Shown piece after piece: positions 3,109-23,916 of a DNA stretch of 32,000 nucleotides. The notes beneath the pieces are model-generated. The model worked only from the letters and a program-made list of their open reading frames with translations, made no database searches and was not told the origin of the DNA. The DNA comes from Delftia acidovorans NBRC 14950. GTDB lineage: Bacteria; Pseudomonadota; Gammaproteobacteria; Burkholderiales; Burkholderiaceae_C. The position numbers and the translations under genes are program-made. How positions within the stretch are numbered: the first letter of the stretch is position 1; each line of letters begins with the position of its first letter. The DNA lies in NCBI RefSeq assembly GCF_001598795.1, contig NZ_BCZP01000013.1, positions 1 to 32,000 on the forward strand. The letters are read 5' to 3'.

Positions 3109-3155
3109 GCTTCGCAATCTACGCAAAATAGCGGCTCAGCCATAGGGCTGAAAAG

Positions 3156-3201
3156 GCGAATTCTTGCGAAACGAAACCCGCGATATTGCGAATTCTGCGA
3201 A
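3156..3201. promoter_or_regulatory. Repeated GCGAA / TTGCGAA elements in the divergent prp control region (candidate operator for the adjacent regulator)
   Basis: GCGAATTCTTGCGAA (3156-3170) and GCGAATTCTGCGAA (3188-3201) are near-identical direct repeats. TTGCGAA occurs at 3164-3170 and 3186-3192. The inverted form TTCGCAA occurs at 3111-3117. Confidence 0.4.
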
Positions 3202-3225
3202 TAACAGCCACCCGAGGAAACAGGC

Positions 3226-4674: not shown

Positions 4675-5640
4675 TCAGGCTGCGCTGCGGTAACGGTCGC
4701 GCAGGTCGCGCACTTCATCGTGGTTGCGCTGGGCACCCTGTGCCTGGCGCTCCACCACCACGCGCACGGCCGGTGGCAGCGGTTGCTTGAGCGCCTTGCG
4801 GTACTGGGCGAGGGCGGAGTCCTCGCCGCGCTCGCATTCCTCCAGCACCGCCTTGTCGTCCTGCGAGGTCAGGGCCGTCTTCACGGACACCCAGCCCCGG
4901 TGCAGCGCGCCGGCCACCGTGCCGCCCGATGCCGGCTCTCCGCCGAGCCTGCGGATTTCCGCTTCCAGCTCCCGCGCGGCAGCGCCGCACTCGGTGGAAT
5001 GGCGCATGAACAGGGCCTTGAGGTCGGGCGAGTCGGCGTTCTCGGAGGAGGTGCGAAAGCCGTACTCGCCATCGCGGCAGGATTCAAGCAGGTCGTTGAG
5101 CACGTCCACCACATCGTCGTTGTCGATATCGCCCGTATAGGCGGGGGCGACGATGGTGCCCGTCTCGTCACGGACATCACGGGTGCCTGCGCGCGCCCAG
5201 GCGGCGCGGGCTGCGGGACGGGCCTGGTCCCAGTCCAGATGGCTGGCGCCACGGCGCGTGGTCCATTCGCGCTCCCATTCAGCGTCGAAGGCATCGAAGT
5301 CGGCATCGCGGCGTGCGGCGGCAGCATTCCAGCCCAGCTCGTAGGCGGGGCGATATTCCTCGTAGCTGCGGCCAGCCACGTAATAGGGCTCGCTCTGGTA
5401 GGCATCGCGCCAGTAGGCATCTTCAACCGTGGGGTTCACGGCCTCGGCCGCACCCTTGCCGGCCAGCCCGCCGACCACGGCACCGGCCACGCCGCCCACG
5501 GCAGCGCCGATGGGGCCACCCATTGCGCCGAATGCAGCGCCGGTGACGGCGCCGCCTGCTGCGCCTATGCCGGTGCCCACCGGGTGCGCGCCGGGTGCGT
5601 CGGACAGCGGGTCACGGTTTGCGGGGTTCGATTGCGTCAT
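4675..5640 (-). CDS. Three-module stress-like protein: N-terminal glycine-zipper, W/Y-rich middle region, C-terminal PA2169-family (DUF2383) four-helix bundle
   Basis: The track ORF (to 5841) has an implausible Arg/Cys-rich leader. The internal ATG at 5640 (MTQSNPANRD) is preceded on the minus strand by AAGGAG. The Gly-zipper reads GTGIGAAGGAVTGAAFGAMGGPIGAAVGGVAGAVVGGLAGKG. The C-terminus reads LNDLLESCRDGEYGFRTSSEN...LHRGWVSVKTALTSQDDKAVLEECERGEDSALAQYRKAL...VERQAQGAQRNHDEVRDLR, which matches the PA2169/DUF2383 pattern. Confidence 0.85.
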   Translation of the reverse strand: MTQSNPANRDPLSDAPGAHPVGTGIGAAGGAVTGAAFGAMGGPIGAAVGGVAGAVVGGLAGKGAAEAVNPTVEDAYWRDAYQSEPYYVAGRSYEEYRPAYELGWNAAAARRDADFDAFDAEWEREWTTRRGASHLDWDQARPAARAAWARAGTRDVRDETGTIVAPAYTGDIDNDDVVDVLNDLLESCRDGEYGFRTSSENADSPDLKALFMRHSTECGAAARELEAEIRRLGGEPASGGTVAGALHRGWVSVKTALTSQDDKAVLEECERGEDSALAQYRKALKQPLPPAVRVVVERQAQGAQRNHDEVRDLRDRYRSAA

Positions 5641-5804
5641 GGAATGTGCTCCTTGGCAGTTGAAAGTGATTCCTATGCTGATGGCCGCGGCGGCCGTCCG
5701 GCGTGCGCGCTTGCGGCCATGTGCCGTAGGAACGCAGCGCCCTGCCCTTGCGGACATCGCGCCAGTCCCCTGTGGCCATTTTTCGCACCCCGGCACAGGG
5801 CAAA

Positions 5805-5826
5805 CACAGGGCAATCGACGTGCCTG
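5805..5826 (-). promoter_or_regulatory. Candidate sigma54 (-24/-12) promoter for the PA2169-family gene
   Basis: The minus strand reads CAGGCACGTCGATTGCCCTGTG, i.e. aGGCACG-N4-TTGCc against the consensus TGGCACG-N4-TTGCW. The 22-mer is 21/22 identical to 6712-6733. It lies ~165 nt upstream of the 5640 start. Confidence 0.5.
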
Positions 5827-5972
5827 CCGGCCCTCCCGCATCGGACTGCATCCGAGCGCATCGGCACGCTCCTACCTCCAGGAAAGTGCTGTGCCCACCC
5901 CCGCTGCAAGCCCGCGCAGGCAGGCTTGGTCCATGACCCGGCCACGGTGGCCGGACCCCCTTGGAGATCACC

Positions 5973-6323
5973 ATGCGCACCCCGAACAACACGGCTGCCA
6001 CCGGCAGCGACACTCCCCAGATCGACCGCAGCGAAGACGCCAGCGCCGACCTGCCCGAAGGCAAGGACATCAACGATCACCTGAGCGCGGAAAAGGATGT
6101 GGCCGATTCCATCGCCGAGGCCTCGGCGCACCGTTTCGACGACATGCCGCAGGACGGCCCGCTGAACTTCGACGACGGCACGGACATGGGCCACCCGCGC
6201 GGCAACACGCAGCGCGAAGGCGGCACCTGGCAGGCCGAGGGCGCGGACAGCGGCAGCCTCAGGCCGCCCGCCGAAATCCTGTCCGACCCCAACGGCCCCA
6301 GCGACCGCAAGAACGGGCGGTGA
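5973..6323 (+). CDS. Hypothetical acidic, low-complexity (likely disordered) protein
   Basis: The track ORF starts at a TTG (5961). The ATG at 5973 follows GGAG (5964-5967). G/C strongly dominates the third codon position throughout. There are no hydrophobic segments and the protein is Asp/Glu/Gly/Pro rich. It ends just before the hairpin at 6347-6368. Confidence 0.6.
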   Translation: MRTPNNTAATGSDTPQIDRSEDASADLPEGKDINDHLSAEKDVADSIAEASAHRFDDMPQDGPLNFDDGTDMGHPRGNTQREGGTWQAEGADSGSLRPPAEILSDPNGPSDRKNGR

Positions 6324-6865: not shown

Positions 6866-7189
6866 ATGAAAGACAAAACCCCATCCGCATCCAAGTCCTC
6901 TGCACCCACACAGGCGAAGCCGTCGGGCGATGGCCAGACCAAGCTGCCCGGCCAGGTGGGCAAGGCGCCCCATGCGCCCGGTGAATCCGATGCAGCCGAC
7001 GCATCCGAACAAGGCCTGCGCCTTCCGCACGAGCGCGACCAGAGCCTGGACGCCACCAGCGATGCGCCCGATCCGGTGATGCGCCAGGCCCATGACGACA
7101 TTGTTTCCGGCCAGGTGGATACCGACATGCGGCAGACGCCGGGACTGGATGCCGAGCGGCGCAAGAAGATGGTGCGCAAGCAGCCTTGA
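6866..7189 (+). CDS. Hypothetical hydrophilic/disordered protein (107 aa)
   Basis: The ATG at 6866 is preceded by AAAAGGAAG. The protein has no hydrophobic segment and is rich in Lys/Pro/Asp/Ser. It contains ...GLRLPHERDQSLD.... It ends at TGA 7187-7189. Confidence 0.6.
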   Translation: MKDKTPSASKSSAPTQAKPSGDGQTKLPGQVGKAPHAPGESDAADASEQGLRLPHERDQSLDATSDAPDPVMRQAHDDIVSGQVDTDMRQTPGLDAERRKKMVRKQP

Positions 7190-7425: not shown

Positions 7426-7668
7426 ATGCCCGACATTCCCGACATTCCCGATTGGCTCCAGTGGCCTGCCTTTGCGGCCTCCCTCATCGGCGCATGGTGG
7501 GTGGGCTCGCGTTCCGCCGGGCGGCGCAATGTGGGCTTCTGGATCCTGATGCTCAGCAATGTGCTGTGGGCACTGTGGGGATGGTCCTCCGGCGCCTGGG
7601 CGCTGGTGACGCTGCAGGCCTGCCTGGCAATCACCAACATCCGCGGCTCCATCAAGGCCGAGCGTTGA
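7426..7668 (+). CDS. 80-aa three-TM membrane protein, PnuC/SemiSWEET-like single triple-helix bundle
   Basis: There are three hydrophobic segments: WLQWPAFAASLIGAWWVG, NVGFWILMLSNVLWALWGW and GAWALVTLQACLAITNIRG. The W/N-rich pattern is reminiscent of PnuC-type repeats. Function is uncertain. Confidence 0.58.
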   Translation: MPDIPDIPDWLQWPAFAASLIGAWWVGSRSAGRRNVGFWILMLSNVLWALWGWSSGAWALVTLQACLAITNIRGSIKAER

Positions 7669-7783
7669 ACGCGCCATGCAGGCCGCCTCCCTCCCTATGG
7701 CCCGGTGCTGGCGCATGGCCGATCCGCGCACAAGCCGTCGGCTGACGGTCGGTGAACCTGGCACTCGGTACCGTGGTCTTTCC

Positions 7784-8539
7784 ATGGAAACACCCCCACT
7801 CCCCGCCCGCAGATTCGCCCTGTTCCTCGACTTCGACGGCACGCTTGTGCCGCTGGCCGAGACCCCGGACGCCATTGCGCCAGACCCCGCACTGATCCCC
7901 ATGCTGGCCAGGCTGCAAGGCCTGCTGGGGGGCGCGCTGGCCATCGTCACGGGGCGGCAGGTCGAGGTGCTGGACCACTTTCTGGCGCCGCTGCATCTGC
8001 CCGCCGCCTGCGAGCATGGCCTGCAGCGGCGGGATGCCGCAGGCCGCCTGCACCCGCAGCCATTGGCTCTGCCAGAGACTGTGCTGCAGTTGTGCAATGC
8101 CCTGGCGGCCGATCATCCCCGCCTGCTGGTGGAGCGCAAGCGCTCCTCGGTCGCACTGCACTACCGGCGTGCGCCAGAGCTGGCGGCGCTGTGCCTGGAT
8201 ACGTTGAGCCGCGTACTGCGGCACCTGCCCGGTCTGGAGCTGCTGCAAGGCAAATGCGTGCTGGAGGTCAGGCCCGCGGGCGTGGACAAGGGCCACGCCA
8301 TTGCGGCCTTTCTGCGCGAAGAGCCGTTCGCCGGACGCACCCCCGTTTTTGCCGGTGACGATGTCACAGACGAGAGCGGCTTTGCCGTGGTGCAGGCGCA
8401 CGGCGGCATGGCGATCAAGGTGGGCGAAGGCGCAAGCAGGGCACGCCACCGGCTGGACAGCCCGCAGGCCGTCCACGCCTGGCTGCAGTGCGCATGCATG
8501 CACCTGGCGGCGCAGACCTGCGCGGAGGCCCTGCCATGA
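7784..8539 (+). CDS. otsB: Trehalose-6-phosphate phosphatase (HAD family)
   Basis: HAD motifs are FLDFDGTL, VTGR and FAGDDVTDESGF. The track start at 7676 adds 36 codons with visibly poorer third-position G/C. The ATG at 7784 puts the DxDGT motif ~15 aa from the N-terminus, as in known OtsB. The stop overlaps the otsA ATG as ATGA (8536-8539). Confidence 0.87.
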   Translation: METPPLPARRFALFLDFDGTLVPLAETPDAIAPDPALIPMLARLQGLLGGALAIVTGRQVEVLDHFLAPLHLPAACEHGLQRRDAAGRLHPQPLALPETVLQLCNALAADHPRLLVERKRSSVALHYRRAPELAALCLDTLSRVLRHLPGLELLQGKCVLEVRPAGVDKGHAIAAFLREEPFAGRTPVFAGDDVTDESGFAVVQAHGGMAIKVGEGASRARHRLDSPQAVHAWLQCACMHLAAQTCAEALP

Positions 8540-10059
8540 GCCGGCTGGTGGTGATCTCCAACCGCGTGGCCGACCCGGGCAAGGCAGCCGCAGGCGGCCT
8601 GGCCGTTGCCATGGGCGATGCGTTGCGGCAGACCGGCGGCCTGTGGTTCGGCTGGAGCGGCACGGTCACCGATGGCCACGCCGCCGCCCCTGCCGGACAT
8701 GTGCACCGGACCCAGGCAGGCAAGGTCACGCTGGCCACCGTGGACCTGGACCGTGCGGACCACGACAGCTACTACGCGGGCTACAGCAACGGCGTGCTGT
8801 GGCCCGTCTTCCATGGCCGGCTGGACCTGGCGAACTTCGACACGGGCCTTGCGGCCGGCTACCGCCGCGTGAACCAGCTGCTTGCGCGCCGGCTGCTGCC
8901 CCTGCTGGCGGAGGACGACATCCTCTGGGTGCATGACTACCACCTGATCCCGCTGGCGGCCGAGCTGCGCGCCCTGGGCTGCCGCCAGCGCATCGGCTTT
9001 TTCCTGCACATCCCATTGCCCCCGCCGACCCTGCTGGCGGCCATTCCCGAGCATGCATGGCTGATGCGCTGCCTGTTCGCCTATGACCTCGTGGGCCTGC
9101 AGACCCGCCAGGACGTGCAGCACTTCGAGCGCTATGTCTGCGAGGAGGCGGGCGGCCAGGCCCTGGGCGAAGGCGCATTCCGCGCCCATGGCCAGCGCCT
9201 GGTCTGCCGCGACTTCCCCATAGGCATCGATGTGGAAGGTTTCATGGCGCTTGCACAGGGCGGCGCCTCGCGCGACATGCACGAGCGCATGAAGCACGAA
9301 TACGCCCAGCGCCGCCTGCTGCTGGGCATAGACCGGCTGGACTACTCCAAGGGCCTGCCGCAGCGCCTGCGCGCCTTCCGGGAGCTGCTGGCCCGTCATC
9401 CCGAGCAGCGCCGCCGCGCCACGCTGATCCAGATCGGCTCGCCCACGCGCGAGGGCCTGGACGCGTATGCCGACATACGGCGTGAACTCGAATCGCTGTG
9501 TGGCGCCATCAACGGCGACTACGGCGAACTGGACTGGATGCCCGTGCGCTACATCCACCAGACCCTGCCGCGCGAGGGCATTCCGGGCCTGTGCCGCGCG
9601 GCGGCCGTGGGCCTGGTCACCCCGCTGCGCGACGGCATGAACCTCGTGGCCAAGGAGTACGTGGCGGCCCAGGACCCGGCCGACCCGGGCGTGCTGGTGC
9701 TGTCGCGGTTTGCGGGCGCTGCCGAGCAGCTGCAGGAGGCGCTGCTGGTCAATCCCTACGACGTGCACGGCACGGCCGCCGTGGTGCAGCAGGCCCTGCA
9801 GATGCCGCTGCAGGAAAGGCGCCAGCGGCATCAGCGGCTGCTGCAGCGCATTGCCGAGCAGGACGTGCACTGGTGGCGCAAGGCCTTTCTGTCTGCCTTG
9901 AAAGAGGCCAGGCCGATGGAGCACAGGGAAAGGGAAGGCTTCGGCATTCCCGTTCCCTCGATCAGGCAGGAGCAGGCACCGCTGCGCCTGGAACTGGCTG
10001 CCTGCCCTGCCGACGGCGTGGAACGGGGCACCTGCCGGTCGGTGGTCTCCGACAGGTAA
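8536..10059 (+). CDS. otsA: Alpha,alpha-trehalose-phosphate synthase (GT20)
   Basis: The N-terminus reads [13 protein letters not shown]20 motifs are [34 protein letters not shown] and [17 protein letters not shown] use the start at 8536 (ATGA coupling to otsB) rather than the track GTG at 8488. Confidence 0.92.
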
Positions 10060-10170
10060 TGCCTTCCTGCTCCTGCGGCGCCGCGTTCATCCTCCCGGCA
10101 CCATGGCATCGCCTGGCGTTTCCCCCATTTTCCAGGCTGCGCAAGGCACGAAAAAGGAAGGTGAGCGGTG

Positions 10171-11259
10171 ATGGCCCAGCACAACGACGAGCACGCCAAT
10201 GCGTGGACATGCAGCGACACGCTGGCCCAAGCCTTGCGCGGCCATGCGGACATGTCGCCGGCGGACCAATTGGCCCTGCTGGTAGCGCAGGGCGCCGACC
10301 GCCTGCCGCTGCCGGGCCATGGTCACACGCTGCAGCGCTGGCGAGCACTGGCCGAAGTGGCTGCCCACAGCCTGGGCCTGGCCAAGCTCTATGAAGGCCA
10401 TACCGACGCCCTGGCCATCCTGTCCGAACTGCAGGCCGACCTGGCCACCGAAGGACTGCGCTGGGCCGTCTGGTGCGCCGAGCCGCCGGGCGAGCGCGTG
10501 CAGGCCACGGCGGCATCTCCCGACGCCACGCAACGCACGACGCTGCAGGCAGGCTCGGCGGTTCGCCTGTCCGGCCACAAGCCCTGGTGCTCCGGCGCCC
10601 GTGCCGTGGACCGTGCCCTGGTCAGCGGCTGGCTGGCAGACGGCCAGCGCTGCCTGATCGCCGTCACCATGGACCAGCCCGGCATCCGCAGGGACGACAG
10701 CCACTGGCAGGCCGTGGGCATGGCCGCCAGCGCCAGCGCCGATGTGCACTTCGACGGCGCCACCGGCGTGCTGGTCGGGGCCCCGGGCCAGTACCTGAGC
10801 CGCCCCGGCTTTCACCATGGCGGCGCAGGCGTTGCGGCCTGCTGGCATGGCGCGGCAGCGCGCATCGCCAGCCATCTGCAGCAGGCCGTCAGTCAAGGCG
10901 AGGACCCGCACCGCCAGGCCCACCTGGGCGCGCTGGACGTGGCCCTGGCCAGCGCGGCCGGCCTGCTGCGCGACGCTGCGGCCTGCATCGATGCCACGCC
11001 ATCGGACCCCTGCCTGCTGGCCGTGAGCCGCGCCCGCCTGGCCGTGGAAGCCGCCGCCGAAGAGGTGCTGCGGCGCGTGCCGCGCGCCATCGGACCGGGC
11101 CCGCTGTGCAAGAACAGGGGTCTGGCGCAGCTGATGGCCGACCTGCCCGTCTTCATCCGCCAAAGCCATGCCGAGCGCGACCAGGCCGCGCTGGGCCGCC
11201 TGCTGGCCGAGAAGGCACAGGCCTCGCAGGCACCGGGAGGCGCGGCATGGATGCTGTGA
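10171..11259 (+). CDS. Acyl-CoA dehydrogenase-fold flavoprotein, substrate unknown
   Basis: 362 aa. AAGGAAGG lies 8 nt upstream of the ATG at 10171. The ACAD-like pattern includes GHGHTLQRWRALAEVAAHSLGLAKLYEGHTDA, KPWCSGA and HHGGAGVAACWHGAA. It is the first gene of a translationally coupled four-gene set. Confidence 0.78.
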   Translation: MAQHNDEHANAWTCSDTLAQALRGHADMSPADQLALLVAQGADRLPLPGHGHTLQRWRALAEVAAHSLGLAKLYEGHTDALAILSELQADLATEGLRWAVWCAEPPGERVQATAASPDATQRTTLQAGSAVRLSGHKPWCSGARAVDRALVSGWLADGQRCLIAVTMDQPGIRRDDSHWQAVGMAASASADVHFDGATGVLVGAPGQYLSRPGFHHGGAGVAACWHGAAARIASHLQQAVSQGEDPHRQAHLGALDVALASAAGLLRDAAACIDATPSDPCLLAVSRARLAVEAAAEEVLRRVPRAIGPGPLCKNRGLAQLMADLPVFIRQSHAERDQAALGRLLAEKAQASQAPGGAAWML

Positions 11260-12005
11260 AGCCGCGCCTCATCGAGGGCCGGGGCACGCCCGAATCGCGC
11301 TGGCAGGCCTGGTTTGCGCAACGCCGGCCAGCGCAGGTATCCATGGACGACCTGCTGGACGGCCGGCGCCGCGCCGTCATCGTCGCGCCGCACCCCGATG
11401 ACGAGATCCTGGGCTGCGCCGGCCTGCTGCACCGCTGTGCCGAGCGGGGCATGCCCTGCCTCATCGTCTCCGTGACCGATGGCGGAGCCAGCCACCCCGA
11501 CTCGACGCTGTGGCCGCCGCAGCGTCTGGTGCGCGAGCGCGTGCAGGAAAGCACTCAGGCCCTGGCCCTGCTTGCGCCGCAGGCGCTGGTGCTGCGGCTG
11601 GGCCTGCCCGACGGCCATATCGCCGAGCATGCCGCGCAGTTGCTGCAGCGGCTGGAGCAGTTGCTGCAGCCCTCGGACGCGCTGCTGTGCACCTGGCGCG
11701 AAGACGGTCACCCGGACCACGAGGCCACGGGACAGGCCTGCGCCACGGCGGCCCGGCACACGGGCTGCCGGCTCTTCGAGCTGCCGATCTGGGCCTGGCA
11801 CTGGGCCGAGCCCGGCGACACGCGCGTGCCCTGGCACCGCGCCGCCGCCATTGCGCTGGCACCGCAGGAGCTGGCGCTCAAGCGCAAGGCCCTGTCGTGC
11901 TTTCGCAGCCAGCTGCTGCCAGACCCGTCCACGGGCCGCGACGCCGTCCTGCCGTCCTGGGCCACGCAGCGCCTGCTGCGTCCGTTTGAAGTGGTGTTTC
12001 TATGA
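11247..12005 (+). CDS. PIG-L / LmbE family de-N-acetylase
   Basis: The ATG at 11247 is preceded by GGGAGG (11235-11240) and overlaps the ACAD stop by 13 nt. Motifs are VIVAPHPDDEILGCAG and GHPDHEATG (zinc-binding PIG-L signature). The long upstream part of track ORF 10473..12005 is an Arg/Pro/Gly-rich off-frame artefact. Confidence 0.85.
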   Translation: MDAVKPRLIEGRGTPESRWQAWFAQRRPAQVSMDDLLDGRRRAVIVAPHPDDEILGCAGLLHRCAERGMPCLIVSVTDGGASHPDSTLWPPQRLVRERVQESTQALALLAPQALVLRLGLPDGHIAEHAAQLLQRLEQLLQPSDALLCTWREDGHPDHEATGQACATAARHTGCRLFELPIWAWHWAEPGDTRVPWHRAAAIALAPQELALKRKALSCFRSQLLPDPSTGRDAVLPSWATQRLLRPFEVVFL

Positions 12006-12610
12006 ACGGCGCCAGGCAACACTTCGAGCAGATGTACCAGGCCGACCCCGACCCCTGGCAGGTCGCATCGCGCTGGTACGAGCGGCGCAAGCGCGATCTG
12101 CTGCTGGCCGCCCTGCCGCGCGAGCGCTATGCCCACGGCTTCGAGCCCGGCTGCGGCAATGGCGAGGCCACGCAGCGCCTGCTGCAGCGCTGCGACCGGC
12201 TGTGCGCCGTCGATTTCTCGGACATGGCCGTGCAGCTGTGCCGCCAGCGGATTGCGCCGCAGGACCGCGCCCGCCTGGACCTGCAGGCCCTGCCCCTGCC
12301 CTGGCAATGGCCCCAGGTGCCACAGATGCCGCAGCAAGGCTTCGATCTCATCGTGGTCTCGGAGCTCGCCTACTACTTCGACGACGCGGCACTGGCGCAT
12401 TTCAACCGCCAGTGCCTGGCCTCGCTGCAGGGCGGCGGGCACTGGCTCATGTGCCACTGGCGGCATGGGGCGCACGATCACCTGCAGACCACTCGCACCC
12501 TGCATGACAGCGTGTCGGCCCATGCGCAGCTGCACTTGCTGCTGAGCCACAGAGAGCCGGATTTCCAGCTGGACATCTGGCAGAAAACCCCTGAAAGGAC
12601 GTACAGATGA
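12002..12610 (+). CDS. Class I SAM-dependent methyltransferase (NodS-like)
   Basis: The N-terminus FEQMYQADPDPWQVASRWYERRKRDLLLAAL is NodS-type. SAM motif I reads GFEPGCGNGEAT. ATGA overlaps occur at both ends (12002-12005 and 12607-12610). Confidence 0.85.
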   Translation: MNGARQHFEQMYQADPDPWQVASRWYERRKRDLLLAALPRERYAHGFEPGCGNGEATQRLLQRCDRLCAVDFSDMAVQLCRQRIAPQDRARLDLQALPLPWQWPQVPQMPQQGFDLIVVSELAYYFDDAALAHFNRQCLASLQGGGHWLMCHWRHGAHDHLQTTRTLHDSVSAHAQLHLLLSHREPDFQLDIWQKTPERTYR

Positions 12611-13365
12611 TCGGCGTGTGCATCCCAGCCCATGACGAGGAAGACCTCATAGGCCGCTGCCTGGACAGCGTGTTTGGCGCGGCCGCCCATGCCGACCTGC
12701 AAGGCGAGACCGTGGCCGTCGTCGTGGTGCTGGACAGCTGCCAGGACGCCACCGAATCGGCCGTGCGCCGCTGGCCCGCCATCCCGTTGCCGATTGCCGC
12801 GCGCAACGTGGGCAAGGCCCGCGCGCTGGGGTCGGAGTACCTGCTGCTGCTGGGCGCCCGCTGGCTGGCCTTCACGGATGCCGACACCACGGTCTCCCAG
12901 AGTTGGCTGGCAGACCAGCTGGCGCTTCAGTCCGACGTGGTCTGCGGCACGGTGCAAGTGGCCGACTGGTCGGCCCACGGCGTCCAGGCGGACACGGCGC
13001 GGCGGCACTTCGAGACCACCTACACGGACCGCGACGGCCACCGCCACGTGCACGGCGCCAACCTGGGCATCTCAGCCTGGCACTACCGCCAGGCCGGCGG
13101 GTTCGACGCACGCACCTGCGGCGAGGACCAGGACCTGGTGGACCGCCTGGCGGCCGGCGGCGCCCGCATCGCCTGGTCGGCCCGGCCCCGGGTGATGACC
13201 AGCGGCCGCGCCTACTCGCGTGTGGCCGACGGTTTTGCCGGTGCGCTGCGCCAGGGATGGGCCCTGCCCGGCAACACGCCGCCTGAGCTGCCCGTGCTCC
13301 AGGGCGCCCTGGCGCAGCAGGCCCTGGCCCTGCCTCAACCGCAGGCCGGCTCGTCCACGCGGTAG
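12607..13365 (+). CDS. Family 2 glycosyltransferase
   Basis: The GT2-type pattern includes CIPAHDEEDLIGRCLDS, a DxD motif in FTDADT, GANLGI and GEDQDLVDRL. It is the last gene of the coupled four-gene set. Confidence 0.85.
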   Translation: MIGVCIPAHDEEDLIGRCLDSVFGAAAHADLQGETVAVVVVLDSCQDATESAVRRWPAIPLPIAARNVGKARALGSEYLLLLGARWLAFTDADTTVSQSWLADQLALQSDVVCGTVQVADWSAHGVQADTARRHFETTYTDRDGHRHVHGANLGISAWHYRQAGGFDARTCGEDQDLVDRLAAGGARIAWSARPRVMTSGRAYSRVADGFAGALRQGWALPGNTPPELPVLQGALAQQALALPQPQAGSSTR

Positions 13366-13895
13366 CAGTCCCTGAGGAACACCGGCAGGTCGTTGGCCGG
13401 CGGCACGAAGGGCACCTGGTACATCATGTCGCTGACAAAACCACGGTGGTAGCTGCCGTGGTTCACCACGTGCAGCACGATCTGCTCGCGCGTCATGGCG
13501 CCCTGCCCGCCGCCCACGAACTCGAAGTGCACGACCTTCGCCAGGTCTTCGTCCGGGCATGCGTCGACGAACTCCACATACCAGCGGTCCATTGCCTGCA
13601 CGGATTCCCACAGCGCCTGCAGCGTGGGCGTGTGGTCGGTGTTGCGCATCGTGTAGCCATGTTTGCGGCCCTGCAGGTGGTGCCTGAAGATGTCCTCCAC
13701 CACAAGGACGTGGTTCAGCGTGCGCACCATGTTGCCGAAGCTCGTGGGGCGCTGCTTCAGGGCCTCGCCTTCGGGCAGCTCCATCACGCTCTTGAAGGTC
13801 AGGCCGTTGGCCCAGGCCTTGTAGCGCACCAGCATTTTCAGGTTGGCCCTGGCCGATGAGACGGGAGCGCGCGGGCTCTCTTGGATCGCTGTCAT
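13335..13895 (-). CDS. DinB-family (DinB_2) metal-dependent protein
   Basis: 186 aa. The DinB-like four-helix pattern includes YKAWANGLTF, TLNHVLVVEDIFRHHL and HVVNHGSYHRG. Its 3' end overlaps the GT2 3' end by 31 nt (convergent). Confidence 0.83.
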   Translation of the reverse strand: MTAIQESPRAPVSSARANLKMLVRYKAWANGLTFKSVMELPEGEALKQRPTSFGNMVRTLNHVLVVEDIFRHHLQGRKHGYTMRNTDHTPTLQALWESVQAMDRWYVEFVDACPDEDLAKVVHFEFVGGGQGAMTREQIVLHVVNHGSYHRGFVSDMMYQVPFVPPANDLPVFLRDCYRVDEPACG

Positions 13896-13917: not shown

Positions 13918-14766
13918 TCAAAGGCCGCTCAGTGCGCCTTCGACATGGGTGCGCGCAGTGCCGCCCACCCAGACCTGGCCCGTGCCGTCACGGGTCAGGA
14001 AGATGCGGCCGTCACGGCCCAGACAGCGGCCCTGGGCGGCAACATAGTCGCTGTCCATCACCCCCGTCGCAAACAGCCACTGCGCCAGCGAGGCGTTGAG
14101 GCTGCCGGTGACGGGGTCTTCGACGATGGCGCCCTGGTGATCGGAGAAGAAGGCGCGCACCTCGCAGGCGGCAGGGCTGGCACCGCTGGCATAGGGTCCC
14201 ACCACGCCCACGTCCATGCGCGTGGGCCACTGCCGGGCCGGGTTCAGCGCCAGCACCTTCTCGGCCGAGGCCAGGCGGATGCCCAGCCAGCCGGGGCCGT
14301 TGTCTATCCACGAGGCGCCCTGCACCTCTTCGGCAGTGATGCCCAGCATGCGCAGCGCGGCATCCAGCTCATCGGCGGTGGGCGCGCCAAAGCGCAGCAT
14401 GGGCGGCGCGGCGAATGCCAGCCGCCCATGCTCCTGCCGTATCTGCACCAGTCCCGCCCCGCACTCCTGGACGATGTGGCCTGCGTTCTTGGGCGCACCG
14501 CGCTGGGACAGCCAGGCATGGCAGCTGCCCAGCGTGGGATGGCCGGCAAAAGGCATCTCCCGGTCCAGCGTGAAAATCCTCACGCGGTAGTCGGCCTGCG
14601 CCTGCGTGGGCGGCAGCAGGAACGCGGTTTCGGAGAGGTTGAACCAGCGCGTCAGCTGCTGCATCTGTGCAGTGGTCAGCGCCTGCCCACCGGTGATCAC
14701 GGCCAGCGGATTGCCAGACAGCGGGCCGCTGGCGAAAACGTCGACCATATGAACGGCAATGCTCAT
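13918..14766 (-). CDS. PhzF-family isomerase
   Basis: 282 aa. VDVFASGPLSGNPLAVI...FNLSETAFLL and FAGHPTLGS are typical of the PhzF family. Confidence 0.9.
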   Translation of the reverse strand: MSIAVHMVDVFASGPLSGNPLAVITGGQALTTAQMQQLTRWFNLSETAFLLPPTQAQADYRVRIFTLDREMPFAGHPTLGSCHAWLSQRGAPKNAGHIVQECGAGLVQIRQEHGRLAFAAPPMLRFGAPTADELDAALRMLGITAEEVQGASWIDNGPGWLGIRLASAEKVLALNPARQWPTRMDVGVVGPYASGASPAACEVRAFFSDHQGAIVEDPVTGSLNASLAQWLFATGVMDSDYVAAQGRCLGRDGRIFLTRDGTGQVWVGGTARTHVEGALSGL

Positions 14767-14829
14767 GAAGACGGTCCTTGTTGCATGGAAAGGAAAAGAA
14801 AGGGAAACGGGCGGCGGGCCCGTGCAGCG

Positions 14830-15234
14830 CTACGGCCGCACATCGGCGCGATGCAACACATGGACCTTGTTGCCGTCGGGATCGCGCAGGTAGGCGCCGT
14901 AGTAGCCATCGCCGTAATGCGGGCGCGGGCCGGGCGGGCCTTCGTCGCTGCCGCCCCGGGCCAGGCCGGCGGCATGGGCCGCGTCCACCGCGTCGGGCGA
15001 CGGGGCCACAAAGGCCACCATGGCGCCATTGCCCGCCGTGGCCGGCTCGCCGTTGAAGGGGCTGTAGACATAAAAGCGCGGCAAGGCCGCCGGCGGCGCC
15101 ACCCAGCACAGCGCGGCCGGCCCGCCATCGGGCTGGACGGCGCGGCGCTGCAGTCCCAGCGGGAAAAGCACCGCGTCATAGAAGCGGCCGGCCCGCTCGA
15201 GATCACGGGCGCCGACGGTGATGTGGCTGAACAT
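14830..15234 (-). CDS. VOC / glyoxalase-family protein
   Basis: 134 aa. It reads MFSHITVGARDLERAGRFYDAVL...GYYGAYLRDPDGNKVH, the VOC-fold pattern. Confidence 0.85.
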   Translation of the reverse strand: MFSHITVGARDLERAGRFYDAVLFPLGLQRRAVQPDGGPAALCWVAPPAALPRFYVYSPFNGEPATAGNGAMVAFVAPSPDAVDAAHAAGLARGGSDEGPPGPRPHYGDGYYGAYLRDPDGNKVHVLHRADVRP

Positions 15235-15246
15235 GGAGTGAACGTT

Positions 15247-15271
15247 ACACTATCGACAAATGAAATAGTGT
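15247..15271. promoter_or_regulatory. Inverted repeat in the AT-rich divergent region between the VOC and MocR genes (candidate operator)
   Basis: ACACTAT (15247-15253) and ATAGTGT (15265-15271) are perfect reverse complements separated by 11 nt. They sit in the only AT-rich stretch of this region. Confidence 0.35.
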
Positions 15272-15303
15272 CACGGCACACTCATTTTTTCCTTGCCCCG
15301 ACC

Positions 15304-16671
15304 ATGCTCCTGCCCTCCCCCTGGACGCCCCGTCTTGCGCGCATTGAAGCCAGTGCCGCCGAGCGGCTGGCGCGCGCCCTGGCCGACGACATCGTCGAAG
15401 GCCAGCTGGCCGGCGGCGACCGCCTCCCCGCCCACAGAGACCTGGCCGACAGGCTGCAGATCGGCCTGGGCTCGGTGACCAGGGCCTATGCGCTGCTGGA
15501 GCGCCGGGGGCTGACACGCAGCGTCAAGGGCCGGGGCACCTTCGTGGCGTCACAGCAGGCGCAGGCTGGCGAGGACATCGACCTGTCTTCCAACGCGCCG
15601 CCGGCCGCCATCAGCGAACGCATGCTGGCGCGCACGCTGACCGCCATTGCGCGCCGCATCGATGCCGATCACTTCAATTCCTACGCGCCGCCGGGCGGAC
15701 ATCCGGAGCATCGCCGCGTGCTCGCGCGCTGGCTGCAGACGCTGGGCCTGAACGTGGAACCCGACCACATGGTGCTGACCAGCAGCGCGCGCCAGGCGCT
15801 GTCGCTGGCCCTTGACCTGGTCTGCCAGCCCCGGGGCCGGCTGCTGACCGAGCGCATCACCTACCCCGGCGCCATTGCCCTGGCCCGGCGCAAGGGCTGG
15901 GCCCTGCAGGGCCTGGCCATCGACACTCAGGGCCTGCTGCCGCAGGCGCTGGCCGATGCGCTGGAGGGCATTCCCGCCGCCGAAGGCAAGGTGGTCTACC
16001 TCACCCCCACGCTGCACAACCCGACCACGGCCACCATGGGCGCGGAGCGCAGGCAGGCGATCGTGGACATCTGCCGCAGCGCAGGCGCCTGGATCATCGA
16101 AGACGGCGTGTATGCCGCCTGCTTGCCCGATCACGCACCCTTGGCCCATCTGGCCACGCTGGCGCCCGAAATCACGCTGCATGTGAACGGGCTGTCCAAG
16201 TCCCTGGGACCGGGGCTGCAGGTGGGCATGCTGGTGCTGCCCGCTTCGCTGTGCGGCGCGGCTGTGGAGCTTGTGCAGGAGATGTCCATGGCGCCTTCGG
16301 CCCTCTCCTGCGCCGTGATCGATGAATGGCTGTCGCACGGCGTGGTCGCTTCCCTGCAGGCCGACCTGCGCCATGAGGCACAGCGGCGCTGCCGGCTGGC
16401 CGCATCACACCTCGCCTCACACCTGAGTGGCTCCGGCCTGGTGCTGCACCCCGAGGCCTACAACGCCTGGCTGCCCATGGAGCGCGAAGCCGCCGACCGC
16501 CTGGTATCGGCCGCAGCGGCGCTGGGTTTGAAGCTGACCGATCCGGGCTCGCTCATGGTGGACCCGCAGGAGCAGGCCAGCGGGCTGCGCATCTGCCTGG
16601 GTGCGCCGCGTTTCGACGCGCTGGACGGCGCCCTGGCGCAGTTGGCCCGGCTGCTTACTGCGGCGCCCTGA
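15304..16671 (+). CDS. MocR-subfamily GntR regulator (winged HTH fused to a PLP-dependent aminotransferase-fold domain)
   Basis: The ATG at 15304 (MLLPSPWTPRL) lies inside a 942-aa track ORF whose upstream part is antisense to the PhzF and VOC genes. The HTH reads LPAHRDLADRLQIGLGSVTRAYALLERRGL. The AAT-fold region contains YLTPTLHNPTT and the PLP-lysine context NGLSKSLGPGL. Confidence 0.88.
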   Translation: MLLPSPWTPRLARIEASAAERLARALADDIVEGQLAGGDRLPAHRDLADRLQIGLGSVTRAYALLERRGLTRSVKGRGTFVASQQAQAGEDIDLSSNAPPAAISERMLARTLTAIARRIDADHFNSYAPPGGHPEHRRVLARWLQTLGLNVEPDHMVLTSSARQALSLALDLVCQPRGRLLTERITYPGAIALARRKGWALQGLAIDTQGLLPQALADALEGIPAAEGKVVYLTPTLHNPTTATMGAERRQAIVDICRSAGAWIIEDGVYAACLPDHAPLAHLATLAPEITLHVNGLSKSLGPGLQVGMLVLPASLCGAAVELVQEMSMAPSALSCAVIDEWLSHGVVASLQADLRHEAQRRCRLAASHLASHLSGSGLVLHPEAYNAWLPMEREAADRLVSAAAALGLKLTDPGSLMVDPQEQASGLRICLGAPRFDALDGALAQLARLLTAAP

Positions 16672-17104
16672 GCTTGTGCTGCAGCGCCCTGGCCACGGCG
16701 CCCAGCACGGGGACCTTGGCGAAGATTTCCTCCACCGGGTCCCAGAAATCCCGGTGCGTCGCCACCAGCCCGTCGCCATCGAACTGCAGGTAGCTGGTGC
16801 CGCAGATGTGCATGGGCTGGCCGGATGCCCGCACAAAGCCCAGCTCCCACAGCAGAAAACCGCTGTCGCCCTGCACCGCGCCGTGGCTGACGGCGAAGCG
16901 GGGCCGGTCGAGCTGCTCGAACATGTGGGAAAACACGCGCTCGATCGCGGCGTGGCCGCGCACCTCGTTGAACGGGTCCTTGAACAGGGCCTGCTCGGCA
17001 TACAGGGACAGCAGCGCCGGCAGGTTGTCGCGGCGCAGGGCCTCGTAGGCCTGGGCCAAGCGGGCCAGTCGCGGATCGGATATGCCGCTGCTCATGGGTT
17101 TCAT
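16655..17104 (-). CDS. NTF2-like / SnoaL-fold protein
   Basis: 149 aa. LSLYAEQALFKDPFNEVRGHAAIERVF is typical of the SnoaL_2/NTF2 fold. Its ATG overlaps the SDR stop as ATGA (17101-17104). It is the last gene of the eight-gene operon. Confidence 0.78.
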   Translation of the reverse strand: MKPMSSGISDPRLARLAQAYEALRRDNLPALLSLYAEQALFKDPFNEVRGHAAIERVFSHMFEQLDRPRFAVSHGAVQGDSGFLLWELGFVRASGQPMHICGTSYLQFDGDGLVATHRDFWDPVEEIFAKVPVLGAVARALQHKLRAPQ

Positions 17105-17901
17105 GCTCCGGTGAAGCGGCGGACCGCAGAGAAATACCAGGCGTCGGGCAGGCAGCGCAGCAGGCGCACCCAGCGCGTGAAGCGGCGCGGGAAATTCATC
17201 TCAAAACGCCCCTGCGCCCAGCCCTGCAGCATATGCCGGGCCGCCTCGTCGGCGCCGATCAGGGCCGGCATGCTGAAGCTGTTTTGCGCCGTCAGCGGCG
17301 TATCGACAAAGCCGGGATTGATGATGGACACGCCCAGGCCCAGGCCATGCAGGTCCAGATAGAGGTTTTCCGCCAGGTTGTTGAGCGCCGCCTTGGTGGG
17401 GCCGTAGGCCAGGGACATGGGCAGCCCACGGTAGCCGGCCACCGAGCCGACCAGGGCCAGATGGCCCCGGCCAGCCTTGAGCAGCATGGGCAGCGCGGCA
17501 TCGAGCAGGTGCAGCACGCCGCCATAGTTCACGGCCAGGTGGTGCTGCATCTCGGCCAGGTCGAACTCGGTGGCGCGCAGGGGCCGGTAGTGGCCTGCGC
17601 AGTAGAGGATCAGGTCGGGTGCCCCGCCCGCGTGGGCCAGCACGGCCTGGGCGGCCGCATCCACGGCGGCGGCATCGGTCACGTCCAGCGGCAGGGCCAG
17701 GCAGCCCTCGCGGCCGCGCACGAAGTCCTGCAGCGCGCCGCCATGCCGTGCGGAGACGATCACCCGGGCGCCCTGCCGGTGCAGCGCCTCGGCCGTGGCA
17801 CGCCCTATGCCCGAGGAGGCGCCCACCACCCATGCCGAGCGTCCCTTCCAGTCAGCCAGCAGCGGGTTCAGCCCGCGCGAGAACAGCGGCATGGCCATCA
17901 C
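17101..17901 (-). CDS. Short-chain dehydrogenase/reductase (SDR)
   Basis: The cofactor motif is VVGASSGIGRA. The catalytic motif is YGPTKAA (YxxxK). The start is ambiguous (GTG 17901, ATG 17898 or ATG 17892), and all candidates abut or overlap the upstream stop. Confidence 0.88.
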   Translation of the reverse strand: MMAMPLFSRGLNPLLADWKGRSAWVVGASSGIGRATAEALHRQGARVIVSARHGGALQDFVRGREGCLALPLDVTDAAAVDAAAQAVLAHAGGAPDLILYCAGHYRPLRATEFDLAEMQHHLAVNYGGVLHLLDAALPMLLKAGRGHLALVGSVAGYRGLPMSLAYGPTKAALNNLAENLYLDLHGLGLGVSIINPGFVDTPLTAQNSFSMPALIGADEAARHMLQGWAQGRFEMNFPRRFTRWVRLLRCLPDAWYFSAVRRFTGA

Positions 17902-18458
17902 TCCTTGACAAAGGACAGCGTCACATCGCCCAGGTGCACGCCGAGCTTGCTCATGGCCGTGCGGTTGAGCAGGGTGCGCCCGTCCATGAGGTACATCCAG
18001 TCATCCATGTGGACGTTCCAGACCCGCCCATTCACGGGCAGGGCCAGCACATAGCTCCAGCGGATGGCATTGCCCGCGCTCTGGCCCTGGGCCTCGCCCA
18101 CCACGTCGTCGGCCCGGCCGCTGTAGCGGCCCTCGCCCAGGTGGCGGATATGCCAGACCCGCTCCTGCGTGCTGCCGTCGCTGTAGACGAAGTGCTCCTC
18201 CAGGGAGCCCTCGTCGCCATTCCAGCGGCCCGTCATGCGCACGGTGAATCGCTTGACCACCTTGCCCGATCGGTCCGTGAACATGCCGTGCGCCGTCAGC
18301 GGCCCGTTGAAATACTGGCGCAGGTCCAGCTGCGGCTGCTCCTTGGCGTAGTCCTGGACCGAAGGCCCGGCACAGCCCGCAAGGGACAGTGCCAAGGCCG
18401 CCCCCAGGCAGACGCGCCGCAGCGGCGAAAACGAAGTGGAGTGGGTGATGTGGCTCAT
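17898..18458 (-). CDS. DUF3833-family lipoprotein
   Basis: The ATG at 18458 overlaps the MFS stop as ATGA. The lipobox is LSLAGC. FNGPLTAHGMFTDRSGKVVKRFTVRMTGRWNGD matches the DUF3833 pattern. Confidence 0.8.
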   Translation of the reverse strand: MSHITHSTSFSPLRRVCLGAALALSLAGCAGPSVQDYAKEQPQLDLRQYFNGPLTAHGMFTDRSGKVVKRFTVRMTGRWNGDEGSLEEHFVYSDGSTQERVWHIRHLGEGRYSGRADDVVGEAQGQSAGNAIRWSYVLALPVNGRVWNVHMDDWMYLMDGRTLLNRTAMSKLGVHLGDVTLSFVKE

Positions 18459-19783
18459 GTGTGACTCCAGGAAGAATGCAATCGCTCGGCGCGCCAAAGC
18501 AGCAGCGCCGCCGCCAGCTTGAGCAGGCAGGGCAGCCCGCCATAGGCCCAGGCCAGCGCCTGCAGCCCGGCCGGGTCGGTGCCGCCGCTGCGGTAGCCCG
18601 CGGCGGACAGCAGGGGCAGGGCCAGGCCCGCAGCCAGGGCCAGGTTGAGCTTGGTGGCGCAGGTCCACCAGCCCAGGTAGCGGCCCTCGCCCCGGCCGCC
18701 CTGGCCGGACTCGTGGATCACGCCCGTGAGCAGTGCGCCCGGTAAGGCCAGGTCCGCGCCCAGGGCCAGCCCGCTGGCCAGGCAGATCACGGCAAAGGCC
18801 ATGGCATCGCCCGCGCCCAGCCAGGGCGTGAAGCCGAAGGCCAGCACGCTGGCCAGCATGCCCGCGCGCCAGCTGGGCGCCAGGCCCCAGCGCGAGACGG
18901 CCTTCACCCACAGCGGCAGGCCCAGGGCCGCCGCGCCAAAGAAGCACAGCAGCAGCAGGGGCTGCAGTGCAGGCGCCTGCAGCCTGTCGGCCACAAAGAA
19001 GGGCAGCAAGGTGGCGGGAACGGCCGCGGCCACGCCATTGAGCATGAAGATGGCCAGCAGCCGGCGAAACCCGGCATCCGCCCATGGAGAAGTGGAAGAG
19101 GCCAGGGCGGCCGAGGCCGGGGACTCCGCTTGCGGCATGCGCGGCGCAGAGGACACATGGGGCACAGGAGCCACGGGCGCCCGGAGCCGGTACAGCCCCA
19201 TCAGCCCCAGCGCCAGGCCCAGCGCAAGCACGGCGCTGGTGGCGTCAAGGCCCATCAAGGCCGGCAGCACGCTGGCCAGCAGCACGCCCGCCAGCGTGGC
19301 GCCCTCGCGCCAGGCCGTCACACGGGCACGCCAGGCGGGCTGCCCGCCCCAGCGGGTGCCCCAGGCCTGGTGGAGGATGGTGACGAAGCTGTAGGCCAGC
19401 GTGCACACCAGCAGGCTGCCGGCCAGCCAGCCCAGCATGGCGGCCTCGGAGCCGCGCGGCGGATGCCACAGCGCCCCGAAACCCAGCACCATCAGCAGGC
19501 TGCCCAGCGCAGCCGCACGCCAGGCCGGCCGCACACCGCCGCGCAGCAGCCTGTCGGCCTGGCGGCCAATTGCCGGATCGACCACGGCATCGAGCGCCCG
19601 CGTGGCCAGCAGCACGGCGCCCAGCCCGGCCAGCGGCGCGCCGGCCACGCTGGCGTAGTGGTAGGGCAGGTTCACATACAGGGGCAGGGACACAAAGGCC
19701 AGCGGCGCGGCCAGCCCGCCATAGGCCAGCCCTGTGCGCCAGGGCAGCACGGGGGCAGGAGCGGGGGCCGGGACGGAGGTCAT
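18455..19783 (-). CDS. MFS-type transporter
   Basis: 442 aa, with about 12 hydrophobic segments and a Gly/Ala/Leu-rich composition. It begins 18 nt after the upstream gene. Confidence 0.83.
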   Translation of the reverse strand: MTSVPAPAPAPVLPWRTGLAYGGLAAPLAFVSLPLYVNLPYHYASVAGAPLAGLGAVLLATRALDAVVDPAIGRQADRLLRGGVRPAWRAAALGSLLMVLGFGALWHPPRGSEAAMLGWLAGSLLVCTLAYSFVTILHQAWGTRWGGQPAWRARVTAWREGATLAGVLLASVLPALMGLDATSAVLALGLALGLMGLYRLRAPVAPVPHVSSAPRMPQAESPASAALASSTSPWADAGFRRLLAIFMLNGVAAAVPATLLPFFVADRLQAPALQPLLLLCFFGAAALGLPLWVKAVSRWGLAPSWRAGMLASVLAFGFTPWLGAGDAMAFAVICLASGLALGADLALPGALLTGVIHESGQGGRGEGRYLGWWTCATKLNLALAAGLALPLLSAAGYRSGGTDPAGLQALAWAYGGLPCLLKLAAALLLWRAERLHSSWSHT

Positions 19784-23776: not shown

Positions 23777-23828
23777 GGAGGCGCCCTTCTTGGTTGAACA
23801 GACCGACTAGACCACAAAGACCAAATCG

Positions 23829-23844: not shown

Positions 23845-23916
23845 AACTATAAACCAAACATACCCGCTTTGCACTATTTGGTATCAGATATGACCTGCGA
23901 GGTCTAAAATATCGCT

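Follow-up and report, generated by a model that had tools for sequence, protein, structure and literature searches.

A glycosyltransferase paired with a zinc-dependent de-N-acetylase of the LmbE/PIG-L family, which exposes the amine of a glucosamine, is found in the bacillithiol and mycothiol pathways (BshA/BshB and MshA/MshB) and in the formation of glycosylphosphatidylinositol (GPI) anchors (PIG-A/PIG-L). A similar pair is encoded in a cassette of four genes from Delftia acidovorans NBRC 14950, located in a stretch of 32,000 nucleotides (NZ_BCZP01000013.1, positions 1-32,000) that we call the window; all coordinates refer to the whole window, which has a G+C content of about 70%. Whereas the described thiol and GPI systems use a glycosyltransferase of family GT4, that of the quartet is a small family-2 enzyme (GT2) with a GT-A fold, and the quartet adds a NodS-like methyltransferase and a flavin-monooxygenase-like partner. 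The reaction order that may be proposed for the quartet, i.e., GT2-catalyzed transfer of N-acetylglucosamine (GlcNAc), de-N-acetylation and N-methylation dependent on S-adenosylmethionine (SAM), resembles Nod-factor tailoring by NodC, NodB and NodS. However, the quartet deacetylase belongs to the PIG-L family, whereas NodB is a CE4 enzyme; the quartet glycosyltransferase is small and soluble, whereas NodC is a processive membrane-bound synthase of chitin oligomers; and the quartet has neither a NodA acyltransferase nor a symbiosis context. No nodA, nodB or nodC gene was present in any quartet locus.

We propose that the quartet encodes one soluble cytoplasmic pathway leading to an N-deacetylated, N-methylated and flavin-oxidized hexosamine glycoside that forms part of a general-stress program, a reading to which we assign a probability of about 0.55. 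In Delftia, the quartet is probably expressed together with the trehalose genes otsBA, which lie directly upstream. The genes concerned are:

10171-11259, + strand: g1, 362 aa, acyl-CoA dehydrogenase (ACAD)-fold flavoprotein-like enzyme, closest to the DszC/TdsC/MsuC type (group D)
11247-12005, + strand: g2, 252 aa, N-acetylglucosaminide de-N-acetylase of the PIG-L/LmbE family (PF02585)
12002-12610, + strand: g3, 202 aa, NodS-like class I SAM-dependent methyltransferase (PF05401)
12607-13365, + strand: g4, 252 aa, small soluble family-2 (GT-A) glycosyltransferase (PF00535)
7676-8539, + strand: otsB, trehalose-6-phosphate phosphatase (PF02358, 1.1e-35)
8536-10059, + strand: otsA, trehalose-6-phosphate synthase (PF00982, 1.3e-114)

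An initial annotation, made from the DNA letters alone, had described four same-strand genes joined by one 13-nt and two ATGA overlaps, and these coordinates were confirmed: g1 and g2 overlap by 13 nt (11247-11259), and the g2/g3 and g3/g4 junctions are ATGA at 12002-12005 and 12607-12610. The start of g1 is ATG 10171, with GTG 10168 as an alternative and AGGAAGG 9 nt 5′, and the ATG of g2 is preceded at 6 nt by the Shine-Dalgarno sequence GGGAGG. The otsA ORF (open reading frame) opens at GTG 8488, and its likely start is ATG 8536; given this start, otsB and otsA show an ATGA stop/start overlap at 8536-8539, so the trehalose genes are packed like the quartet. The gap between otsA and g1 measures 111 nt, and the 108 nt given in the initial annotation holds only when the alternative GTG is taken as the start. 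A scan for sigma-70 promoters and terminators between 7200 and 14000 revealed no + strand terminator-like site in this gap. Seven genes (7426-13365), i.e., an 80-aa ORF, otsBA and the quartet, could therefore form one transcript.

Short overlaps by themselves are commonplace in operons. The quartet exceeds chance because the set and its short overlaps are conserved in two phyla and because fused versions exist. Scanning one genome per GTDB species gave at least 564 loci with a relative of g1, of which the best 80 were fetched; plasmid and chromid records as well as metagenomes supplied additional loci, and co-occurrence was counted in 90 loci. Beside the ACAD-like gene, the methyltransferase (MT) was present in 86 of the 90 loci, the GT2 in 79 and the PIG-L enzyme in 62. 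The constant core of the cassette is the ACAD-like gene plus the methyltransferase.

The order ACAD-PIGL-MT-GT2 recurs in Betaproteobacteria (Delftia, Giesbergeria, Comamonas, Bordetella, Pusillimonas, Variovorax, Duganella, Massilia and Pandoraea), Gammaproteobacteria (Halotalea, about a dozen Pseudomonas species, and Acinetobacter on plasmids and on the A. baumannii chromosome) and Actinobacteria (Streptomyces, Kitasatospora and Embleya). The Pseudomonas putida group is among the carriers. Lack of conservation as a unit, which the initial annotation had named as an outcome that would count against it, was not found, and the order is mostly the same across these groups. Overlaps are short elsewhere as well, with 13, 8 and 4 nt in Acinetobacter, 4, 4 and 4 nt in Streptomyces rimosus, and similar ones in Pandoraea and Comamonas endophytica. 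In some Variovorax and Xenophilus loci the GT2 gene has been relocated to just upstream of the ACAD-like gene; it still adjoins the set, so the linkage outlives rearrangement.

Natural fusions combine the same activities. An 851-aa protein consisting of ACAD-like, PIG-L and NodS-type methyltransferase parts was found in five independent entries, one of them named Candidatus Nesterenkonia stercoripullorum, and only 2 nt separate this triple fusion from the end of a 224-aa GT2 gene on its upstream side. A second triple fusion (876 aa) occurs in JGI metagenomes, and a 534-aa fusion of GT2 and ACAD-like enzyme is followed by a NodS-type gene. Since such fusions exist, the four activities belong to one pathway, and we regard the fusions as the strongest evidence for this. 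Together with the conservation and with order permutations that keep the genes together, they show that the four genes are one functional unit, as the initial annotation had argued from the overlaps.

The product of g1 shares 99% identity with a Delftia acidovorans protein. Its only Pfam match was a sub-threshold one to Acyl-CoA_dh_M (20.7 bits, cut-off 33.3), and neither the N- nor the C-terminal acyl-CoA dehydrogenase domain was matched (PF02771, PF02770 and PF00441 tested). With these domains below cut-off, g1 was rejected as a member of the acyl-CoA dehydrogenase sequence family. The AlphaFold model (pLDDT 84, pTM 0.85) nevertheless has the ACAD fold that the initial annotation had assigned, with a three-domain alpha/beta/alpha architecture (helices 15-86, strands 98-201, helices 207-351) and a Foldseek probability of 1.00 to both ACADs and group D monooxygenases. 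The top structural matches were 5GJ7, TdsC/DszC, the nitrososynthases DnmZ and KijD3, and SCAD, with TM-scores of 0.6-0.7 and about 18% identity.

A search of the PDB with a profile of the g1 family ranked TdsC (1.2e-10), MsuC (5.2e-8) and DszC (3e-7) ahead of true ACADs. Furthermore, the invariant motif GxKxWCSGA of the family (K137-x-W-C-S141-G-A) aligns with GTKHFCSGA of DszC, so that the DszC-type CSG serine motif is retained. Because of this ranking and the motif, we read g1 as monooxygenase-like, i.e., as a probable flavin-monooxygenase-like enzyme of the ACAD fold rather than a mainstream acyl-CoA dehydrogenase. The family is also distinct and sharply separated from mainstream ACADs: among 1.84 billion representatives searched, it comprised 555 clusters (50% identity) at E<=1e-30 and just 2335 at E<=1e-3. 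An ACAD encoded on a Methylobacterium plasmid, which had appeared as a match, proved to be a different enzyme that lacks the partner genes and was set aside.

With the group D two-component flavin monooxygenases (DszC/TdsC, SfnB and MsuC, and the nitrososynthases DnmZ, KijD3 and ORF36), g1 thus shares the fold, the best profile matches and a GxKxFCSG-type motif. It differs from them by its low identity and its shorter N-terminal domain (362 aa in total as compared to about 400-417), and H92 and Y96 of DszC align with K72 and G76 of g1. The curated NCBIfam models scored far below cut-off (SfnB 33 bits versus 431, DszC 21 versus 850), and assignment as a DszC or SfnB equivalog was rejected. The cassette moreover encodes neither a flavin reductase nor TDP-sugar enzymes, and TDP-sugar genes were found in none of the quartet loci examined. 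The initial annotation had suggested an amino-sugar N-oxygenase of the nitrososynthase type. The profile ranking, with group D flavin monooxygenases as nearest relatives, fits the general idea of an ACAD-fold oxygenase. Nitrososynthases, though, are no closer to g1 than enzymes of the DszC type: they were no better than DszC or SCAD among the top Foldseek matches and were absent from the profile-sequence matches.

The family assignments of the other three proteins were all above Pfam cut-offs, in agreement with the initial annotation, and the motifs that it had listed, i.e., PHPDDE and HPDH for g2, EPGCGNG for g3, and DAD and GEDQDL for g4, are all present in the translations. The catalytic motifs of the quartet are at least 95% conserved among 58-85 homologs. 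No NCBIfam equivalog was found for any of the four proteins, and NCBI annotation gives them generic names only.

For g2, the match to PF02585 (PIG-L) reached 83.5 bits (cut-off 28.2, 2.4e-23). Its zinc-binding and catalytic motifs P48-H-P-D-D-E53 and G154-H-P-D-H-E159 are at least 95% conserved in 58 homologs, and its relatives in the PDB are TT1542 and diacetylchitobiose deacetylases. To our knowledge, all characterized members of the PIG-L family hydrolyze N-acyl-glucosamine amides.

The best, though weak, NCBIfam matches of g2 are BshB1 and BshB2, and a glycosyltransferase plus an LmbE-type deacetylase opens both the bacillithiol and the mycothiol pathway, which could indicate that the cassette makes a low-molecular-weight thiol or a related redox cofactor. 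Relatives of the ACAD-like enzyme (DszC, SfnB, MsuC) oxidize sulfur compounds, and a DinB-family gene lies convergently downstream (13335-13895); the DinB family includes thiol S-transferases. However, BshB1 scored 44.5 bits against a cut-off of 182.5, the glycosyltransferase is of family GT2 and not GT4 as in MshA and BshA, and no cysteine ligase (MshC/BshC) is conserved with the set in the 90 loci. Membership in the bacillithiol pathway was rejected on these three grounds. The DinB gene is kept beside the quartet in Delftia only, and we judge its position coincidental. A thiol product is accordingly very unlikely.

The methyltransferase g3 matched PF05401 (NodS) with 38.4 bits (cut-off 24, 1.5e-9). 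Since its score with the NodS equivalog NF041650 was far below cut-off (52.3 versus 300 bits) it is not NodS itself, and with no nodABC genes around it, a role as the nodulation N-methyltransferase was rejected. Membership in the thiol, GPI and Nod systems was thus rejected, with every equivalog score far below cut-off, and a match to an already described pathway, the other outcome that the initial annotation had named as speaking against it, was not obtained. The clear ortholog of g3 in the PDB is 4ISC (2.2e-38, residues 24-194), so that an experimental structure of the family exists; it was deposited merely as 'Methyltransferase', and the search output gave no function or ligand. The next-closest solved structure is NodS (3OFJ, 3.9e-10), which is the closest characterized relative of g3, and gentamicin N-methyltransferases match weakly. 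NodS N-methylates de-acetylated glucosamine.

The glycosyltransferase g4 matched PF00535 (Glycos_transf_2) with 42.6 bits (cut-off 23.3, 7.9e-11). Enzymes of this family are inverting transferases that use NDP-sugars. Conserved residues include D91-A-D93, E173-D174 and a distinctive H145-x-H147-x-H149-G-A-N motif, whereas the C-terminal segment of about 30 aa is a Delftia-specific tail, homologs being mostly 220-235 aa long. The structure model is a generic GT-A fold for which Foldseek gave WrtF, AvpGT and PcManGT as nearest matches, and these generic matches did not reveal the donor or acceptor. The best NCBIfam matches (MftF and TIGR04283) are weak.

No membrane or hydrophobic segment and no signal peptide was predicted in g1-g4, and the A. 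baumannii proteins gave the same result as those of Delftia; the products are thus predicted to be soluble and cytoplasmic. This bears on the suggestion of the initial annotation that the cassette might decorate a lipid or cell-envelope acceptor, in which case GlcNAc-lipid would be converted to GlcN-lipid as in GPI synthesis, N-methylation would follow, and the substrate of the ACAD-like enzyme would be an acyl chain. GPI-anchor formation does begin with a glycosyltransferase and then PIG-L, which fits such a scheme, and genes for MprF-like lysyl-phosphatidylglycerol synthases and for phospholipase D (PLD)/cardiolipin-synthase-like proteins occur within 8 kb in 17 and 9 loci, respectively. These genes are, however, several kb away, within larger stress islands of Paraburkholderia and Pseudomonas only. 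The set is not accompanied by any conserved flippase, polyprenyl-phosphate transferase or acyltransferase, and DszC-type monooxygenases are closer relatives of the ACAD-like protein than are acyl-chain dehydrogenases. Given the absence of membrane segments from all four proteins, we do not favor this alternative and consider it improbable.

The preferred reading of a soluble pathway can be written as four steps. In the first, the GT2 would move an N-acetylhexosamine, most likely GlcNAc from UDP-GlcNAc, onto a small acceptor. The PIG-L enzyme would then strip the N-acetyl group to free the amine, which would subsequently be methylated by the NodS-like enzyme. In the fourth step, the ACAD-fold, DszC-like enzyme would act as a reduced-flavin monooxygenase that oxidizes the intermediate or the acceptor, and N-oxygenation is possible. 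Enzymes of the DszC type use reduced flavin and O2. Such a pathway would yield a small glycoside with a protective role, made within the stationary-phase and general-stress program (desiccation, osmotic and oxidative stress). Donor, acceptor, step order, methylation site, oxidation type and physiological role are parts of the scheme that we infer, and the product, putatively an N-methyl or oxidized glucosaminide, follows from homology only. We rate the cassette as a new pathway assembled from known enzyme families.

The same relatives could also be taken to mean that the cassette is catabolic or detoxifying and modifies or inactivates amino-sugar compounds that enter from outside, e.g., fragments of chitin or antibiotics resembling aminoglycosides. 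The diacetylchitobiose deacetylases among the g2 relatives, the catabolic monooxygenases related to g1 and the weak resemblance of g3 to aminoglycoside N-methyltransferases would agree with such a role. However, a glycosyltransferase constantly accompanies the ACAD-like enzyme (79 of 90 loci), in one lineage even as a fusion with it, and there is no conserved association of the set with hydrolases, kinases or uptake systems. The neighbors, moreover, are trehalose, non-homologous end-joining (NHEJ), catalase and general-stress genes, not genes of sugar catabolism. A catabolic function is therefore quite unlikely.

The genomic neighborhoods agree with the link to stress or compatible solutes that the initial annotation had drawn from the position next to otsBA. 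The order otsB-otsA-quartet is common to Delftia, Giesbergeria and Comamonas, with otsBA directly upstream. Comamonas endophytica has the arrangement otsA-ACAD-PIGL-MT-GT2-otsB, in which adjacent genes overlap or are only a few nt apart. An MFS gene and a convergent otsA-otsB pair come after the quartet on Acinetobacter plasmids and in strain Tol 5. Adjacency to otsBA thus occurs in three different arrangements (upstream, flanking and convergent), and GlgE is encoded near quartet genes on a Cupriavidus plasmid. The embedding among ots genes makes trehalose or trehalose-6-phosphate a candidate acceptor; co-regulation alone could also explain it. Other lineages carry an HPII catalase gene near the quartet (10 loci), and recurrent neighbors are PA2169-family, DUF2171, DUF421, CsbD, YqjD and Transgly_assoc proteins. 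The quartet sits in stress islands, and the stress or compatible-solute link holds on the evidence of these neighborhoods. Since the quartet is usually beside genes for surviving drought or starvation, a protective sugar-based product is probable.

Genes for DNA end joining are also close by: within 8 kb, LigD was counted in 19 loci and Ku in 11. This adjacency is found in Pseudomonas, Achromobacter (a tight Ku-LigD-ACAD-MT-GT2 array), Comamonas and one Variovorax, and in one locus (L092) an Fpg glycosylase gene is adjacent. The cassette might then act on a macromolecule tied to end joining, e.g., by adding sugar or methyl groups to DNA or to a repair protein during dormancy. Searches of g1-g4 with Pfam and NCBIfam, however, revealed no domain that binds DNA or modifies nucleic acids, and the association with trehalose genes is equally strong. 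Because Ku and LigD are themselves stationary-phase and desiccation genes, their adjacency is explained by co-regulation, and we consider an action on DNA or repair proteins extremely improbable.

Several single loci gave further observations on the neighborhood. On the A. baumannii chromosome (L083, 12178-13174, + strand), the quartet adjoins a ygiW-like bipA gene and the BLUF photoreceptor gene blsA, and it is divergent from a DUF2171 gene. In Streptomyces rimosus (L082, 6832-6856, + strand), GTAT-N15-GGGTAT fits the SigB/SigF-type consensus GNNT-N14-16-GGGTA and precedes the ACAD-like gene by about 90 nt. A similar strict match occurs in Embleya (L086), whereas the motif is absent upstream in Kitasatospora and in Streptomyces sp. 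NBC_01435. A SigB/SigF-like GNNT-N15-GGGTA in two of four actinobacterial loci is too weak for a claim of such regulation. The S. rimosus quartet is preceded, at a distance of a few kb, by genes for a SpoIIE-family phosphatase and a HAMP-domain protein.

Published expression data are available for Acinetobacter. In A. baumannii ATCC 17978 the quartet is AUO97_RS00035-50, beside bipA and blsA (PMC9948694 supplement). From dark to blue light, the values in fragments per kilobase per million (FPKM) rose from 7.7 to 14.4 for the GT, from 8.1 to 17.1 for the MT, from 15.6 to 30.9 for PIG-L and from 12.4 to 20.7 for the ACAD-like gene, i.e., 1.7-2.1-fold for the quartet (PMC9948694). In the same dataset otsA increased 2.1-fold, otsB 2.8-fold, katE 1.65-fold and the divergent DUF2171 gene 4.3-fold (PMC9948694). 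The table thus shows a joint increase of the entire A. baumannii neighborhood. These data support co-expression of the quartet as a unit and, in this one dataset, a modest induction alongside otsBA and katE.

Several results weigh against the proposed pathway. Expression of the quartet in A. baumannii was low (FPKM 8-31; PMC9948694), and in Acinetobacter Tol 5 desiccation gave no consistent induction of the quartet (TOL5_13360-13390; PMC13130816 supplement), with only PIG-L raised, in one condition (log2 fold change 1.15, adjusted P value 0.03; PMC13130816). For Delftia, the sigma-70/terminator scan detected no promoter in the gap between otsA and g1, and an alignment of this gap across Comamonadaceae gave no conserved motif. 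With respect to the enzymes, Foldseek does not tell a dehydrogenase from a monooxygenase for g1, the flavin reductase that a two-component monooxygenase would be paired with is missing from the cassette, and the named GT2 families nearest to g4 (MftF and TIGR04283) are not GlcNAc transferases. Orthologous PIG-L is lacking within 8 kb in 25 of the 90 loci (Achromobacter, Paraburkholderia, Burkholderia sp., Pollutimonas and Cupriavidus), where a relaxed tblastn search (E<10) revealed no hidden PIG-L gene, and the GT2 is lacking within 8 kb in eight. The simple four-step scheme leaves these loci unexplained; either the missing enzymes are encoded elsewhere or the steps differ.

One of the loci without an orthologous PIG-L gene is on the Cupriavidus basilensis plasmid pRK1-2 (L088). 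About 3 kb upstream of, and divergent from, its ACAD-MT-GT2 trio, a PIG-L gene that is not orthologous to g2 (3075-3797, - strand) adjoins an HPII catalase gene. This gene may be a non-orthologous replacement.

The literature search returned no functional characterization of the quartet, with subscription-journal papers mostly outside its reach; this and the lack of equivalogs agree with the statement of the initial annotation that no characterized pathway has this set of genes. A 2023 paper mentions the A. baumannii quartet genes solely as uncharacterized neighbors of blsA. Two leads from other organisms were considered. An identity of the quartet with P. aeruginosa PA2167-PA2170 is doubtful because 'PA2169 family' names a DUF2383/four-helix-bundle protein that is merely a neighbor here. 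For the SigF-dependent GT2 gene MSMEG_1097 of M. smegmatis, no connection to the g4 family could be made, and it was dropped.

A more specific and tentative proposal, which we consider possible rather than probable, is that the cassette makes an undescribed, widespread stress metabolite, i.e., an N-methylated and N-oxygenated glucosaminide, possibly on trehalose or trehalose-6-phosphate, that serves as a compatible solute or as a protectant against desiccation or oxidative damage. If this were true, Proteobacteria, among them A. baumannii, and Actinobacteria would have a new class of such compounds. If the proposed pathway itself holds, hundreds of soil, plant-associated and clinical species would make an unrecognized amino-sugar metabolite upon dormancy or drying, alongside trehalose and end-joining DNA repair. 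The makers would include Acinetobacter baumannii, the Pseudomonas putida group, Achromobacter, Paraburkholderia and Streptomyces. It would be a new player in desiccation and stationary-phase survival, relevant to the persistence of Acinetobacter in hospitals and to the shelf life of inoculants, and it would provide a function for four large, generically named protein families and for the orphan structure 4ISC. The cassette is small and self-contained and is found in genetically tractable organisms, which makes the question directly testable.

Other genes and ORFs noted in the window are:

358-1596, 1625-2737, 20317-22038, 22535-23797 and 23884-24603: long ORFs (239-573 aa) with no Pfam match at the thresholds used
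3226-4638, + strand: 470-aa regulator with HTH_3, Peptidase_M78 (IrrE-like) and ScfRs (short-chain fatty acyl-CoA regulator) domains
4675-5841, - strand: 388-aa protein with a C-terminal DUF2383 domain (PA2169-family four-helix bundle)
5961-6323 and 6866-7189, + strand: two hydrophilic low-complexity ORFs (120 and 107 aa) with no Pfam match
7426-7668, + strand: small predicted membrane protein with three transmembrane segments (3-TM), 80 aa, 7 nt upstream of otsB
13335-13895, - strand: DinB-family gene, convergent with g4 and overlapping its 3′ end by 31 nt
13918-16671: PhzF-like, glyoxalase-family and GntR-aminotransferase (MocR-type) genes
16655-19783, - strand: run of SnoaL-like, SDR, DUF3833 and MFS_2 genes

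The 3-TM protein may be an accessory or transport component of the cassette, such as a half-size transporter. Homologs were present in 15 of 94 loci. The Pseudomonas homologs are flanked by LigD and the ACAD-like gene, and their stop and start codons overlap; those of Xenophilus and Variovorax have GT2 and the ACAD-like gene on either side. The protein belongs to no Pfam family, with sub-threshold matches to PnuC (NMN_transporter) and YgjV only, and a profile search against the PDB gave no match. The family is very large (at least 7989 clusters at 90% identity), and nearly all named members are called 'hypothetical protein'. Because it also occurs in unrelated, heterogeneous genomic contexts, its membership in the module is tentative.

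None of the genes between 13918 and 19783 is conserved with the quartet in other genera, and the 470-aa regulator is unrelated to the cassette as far as was seen. Some of the long ORFs with no Pfam match may be shadow ORFs of the G+C-rich DNA. Genes of the PA2169 family, to which the 388-aa protein belongs, are located directly upstream of the ACAD-like gene in the Cupriavidus basilensis locus described above and in a Variovorax locus (L035).

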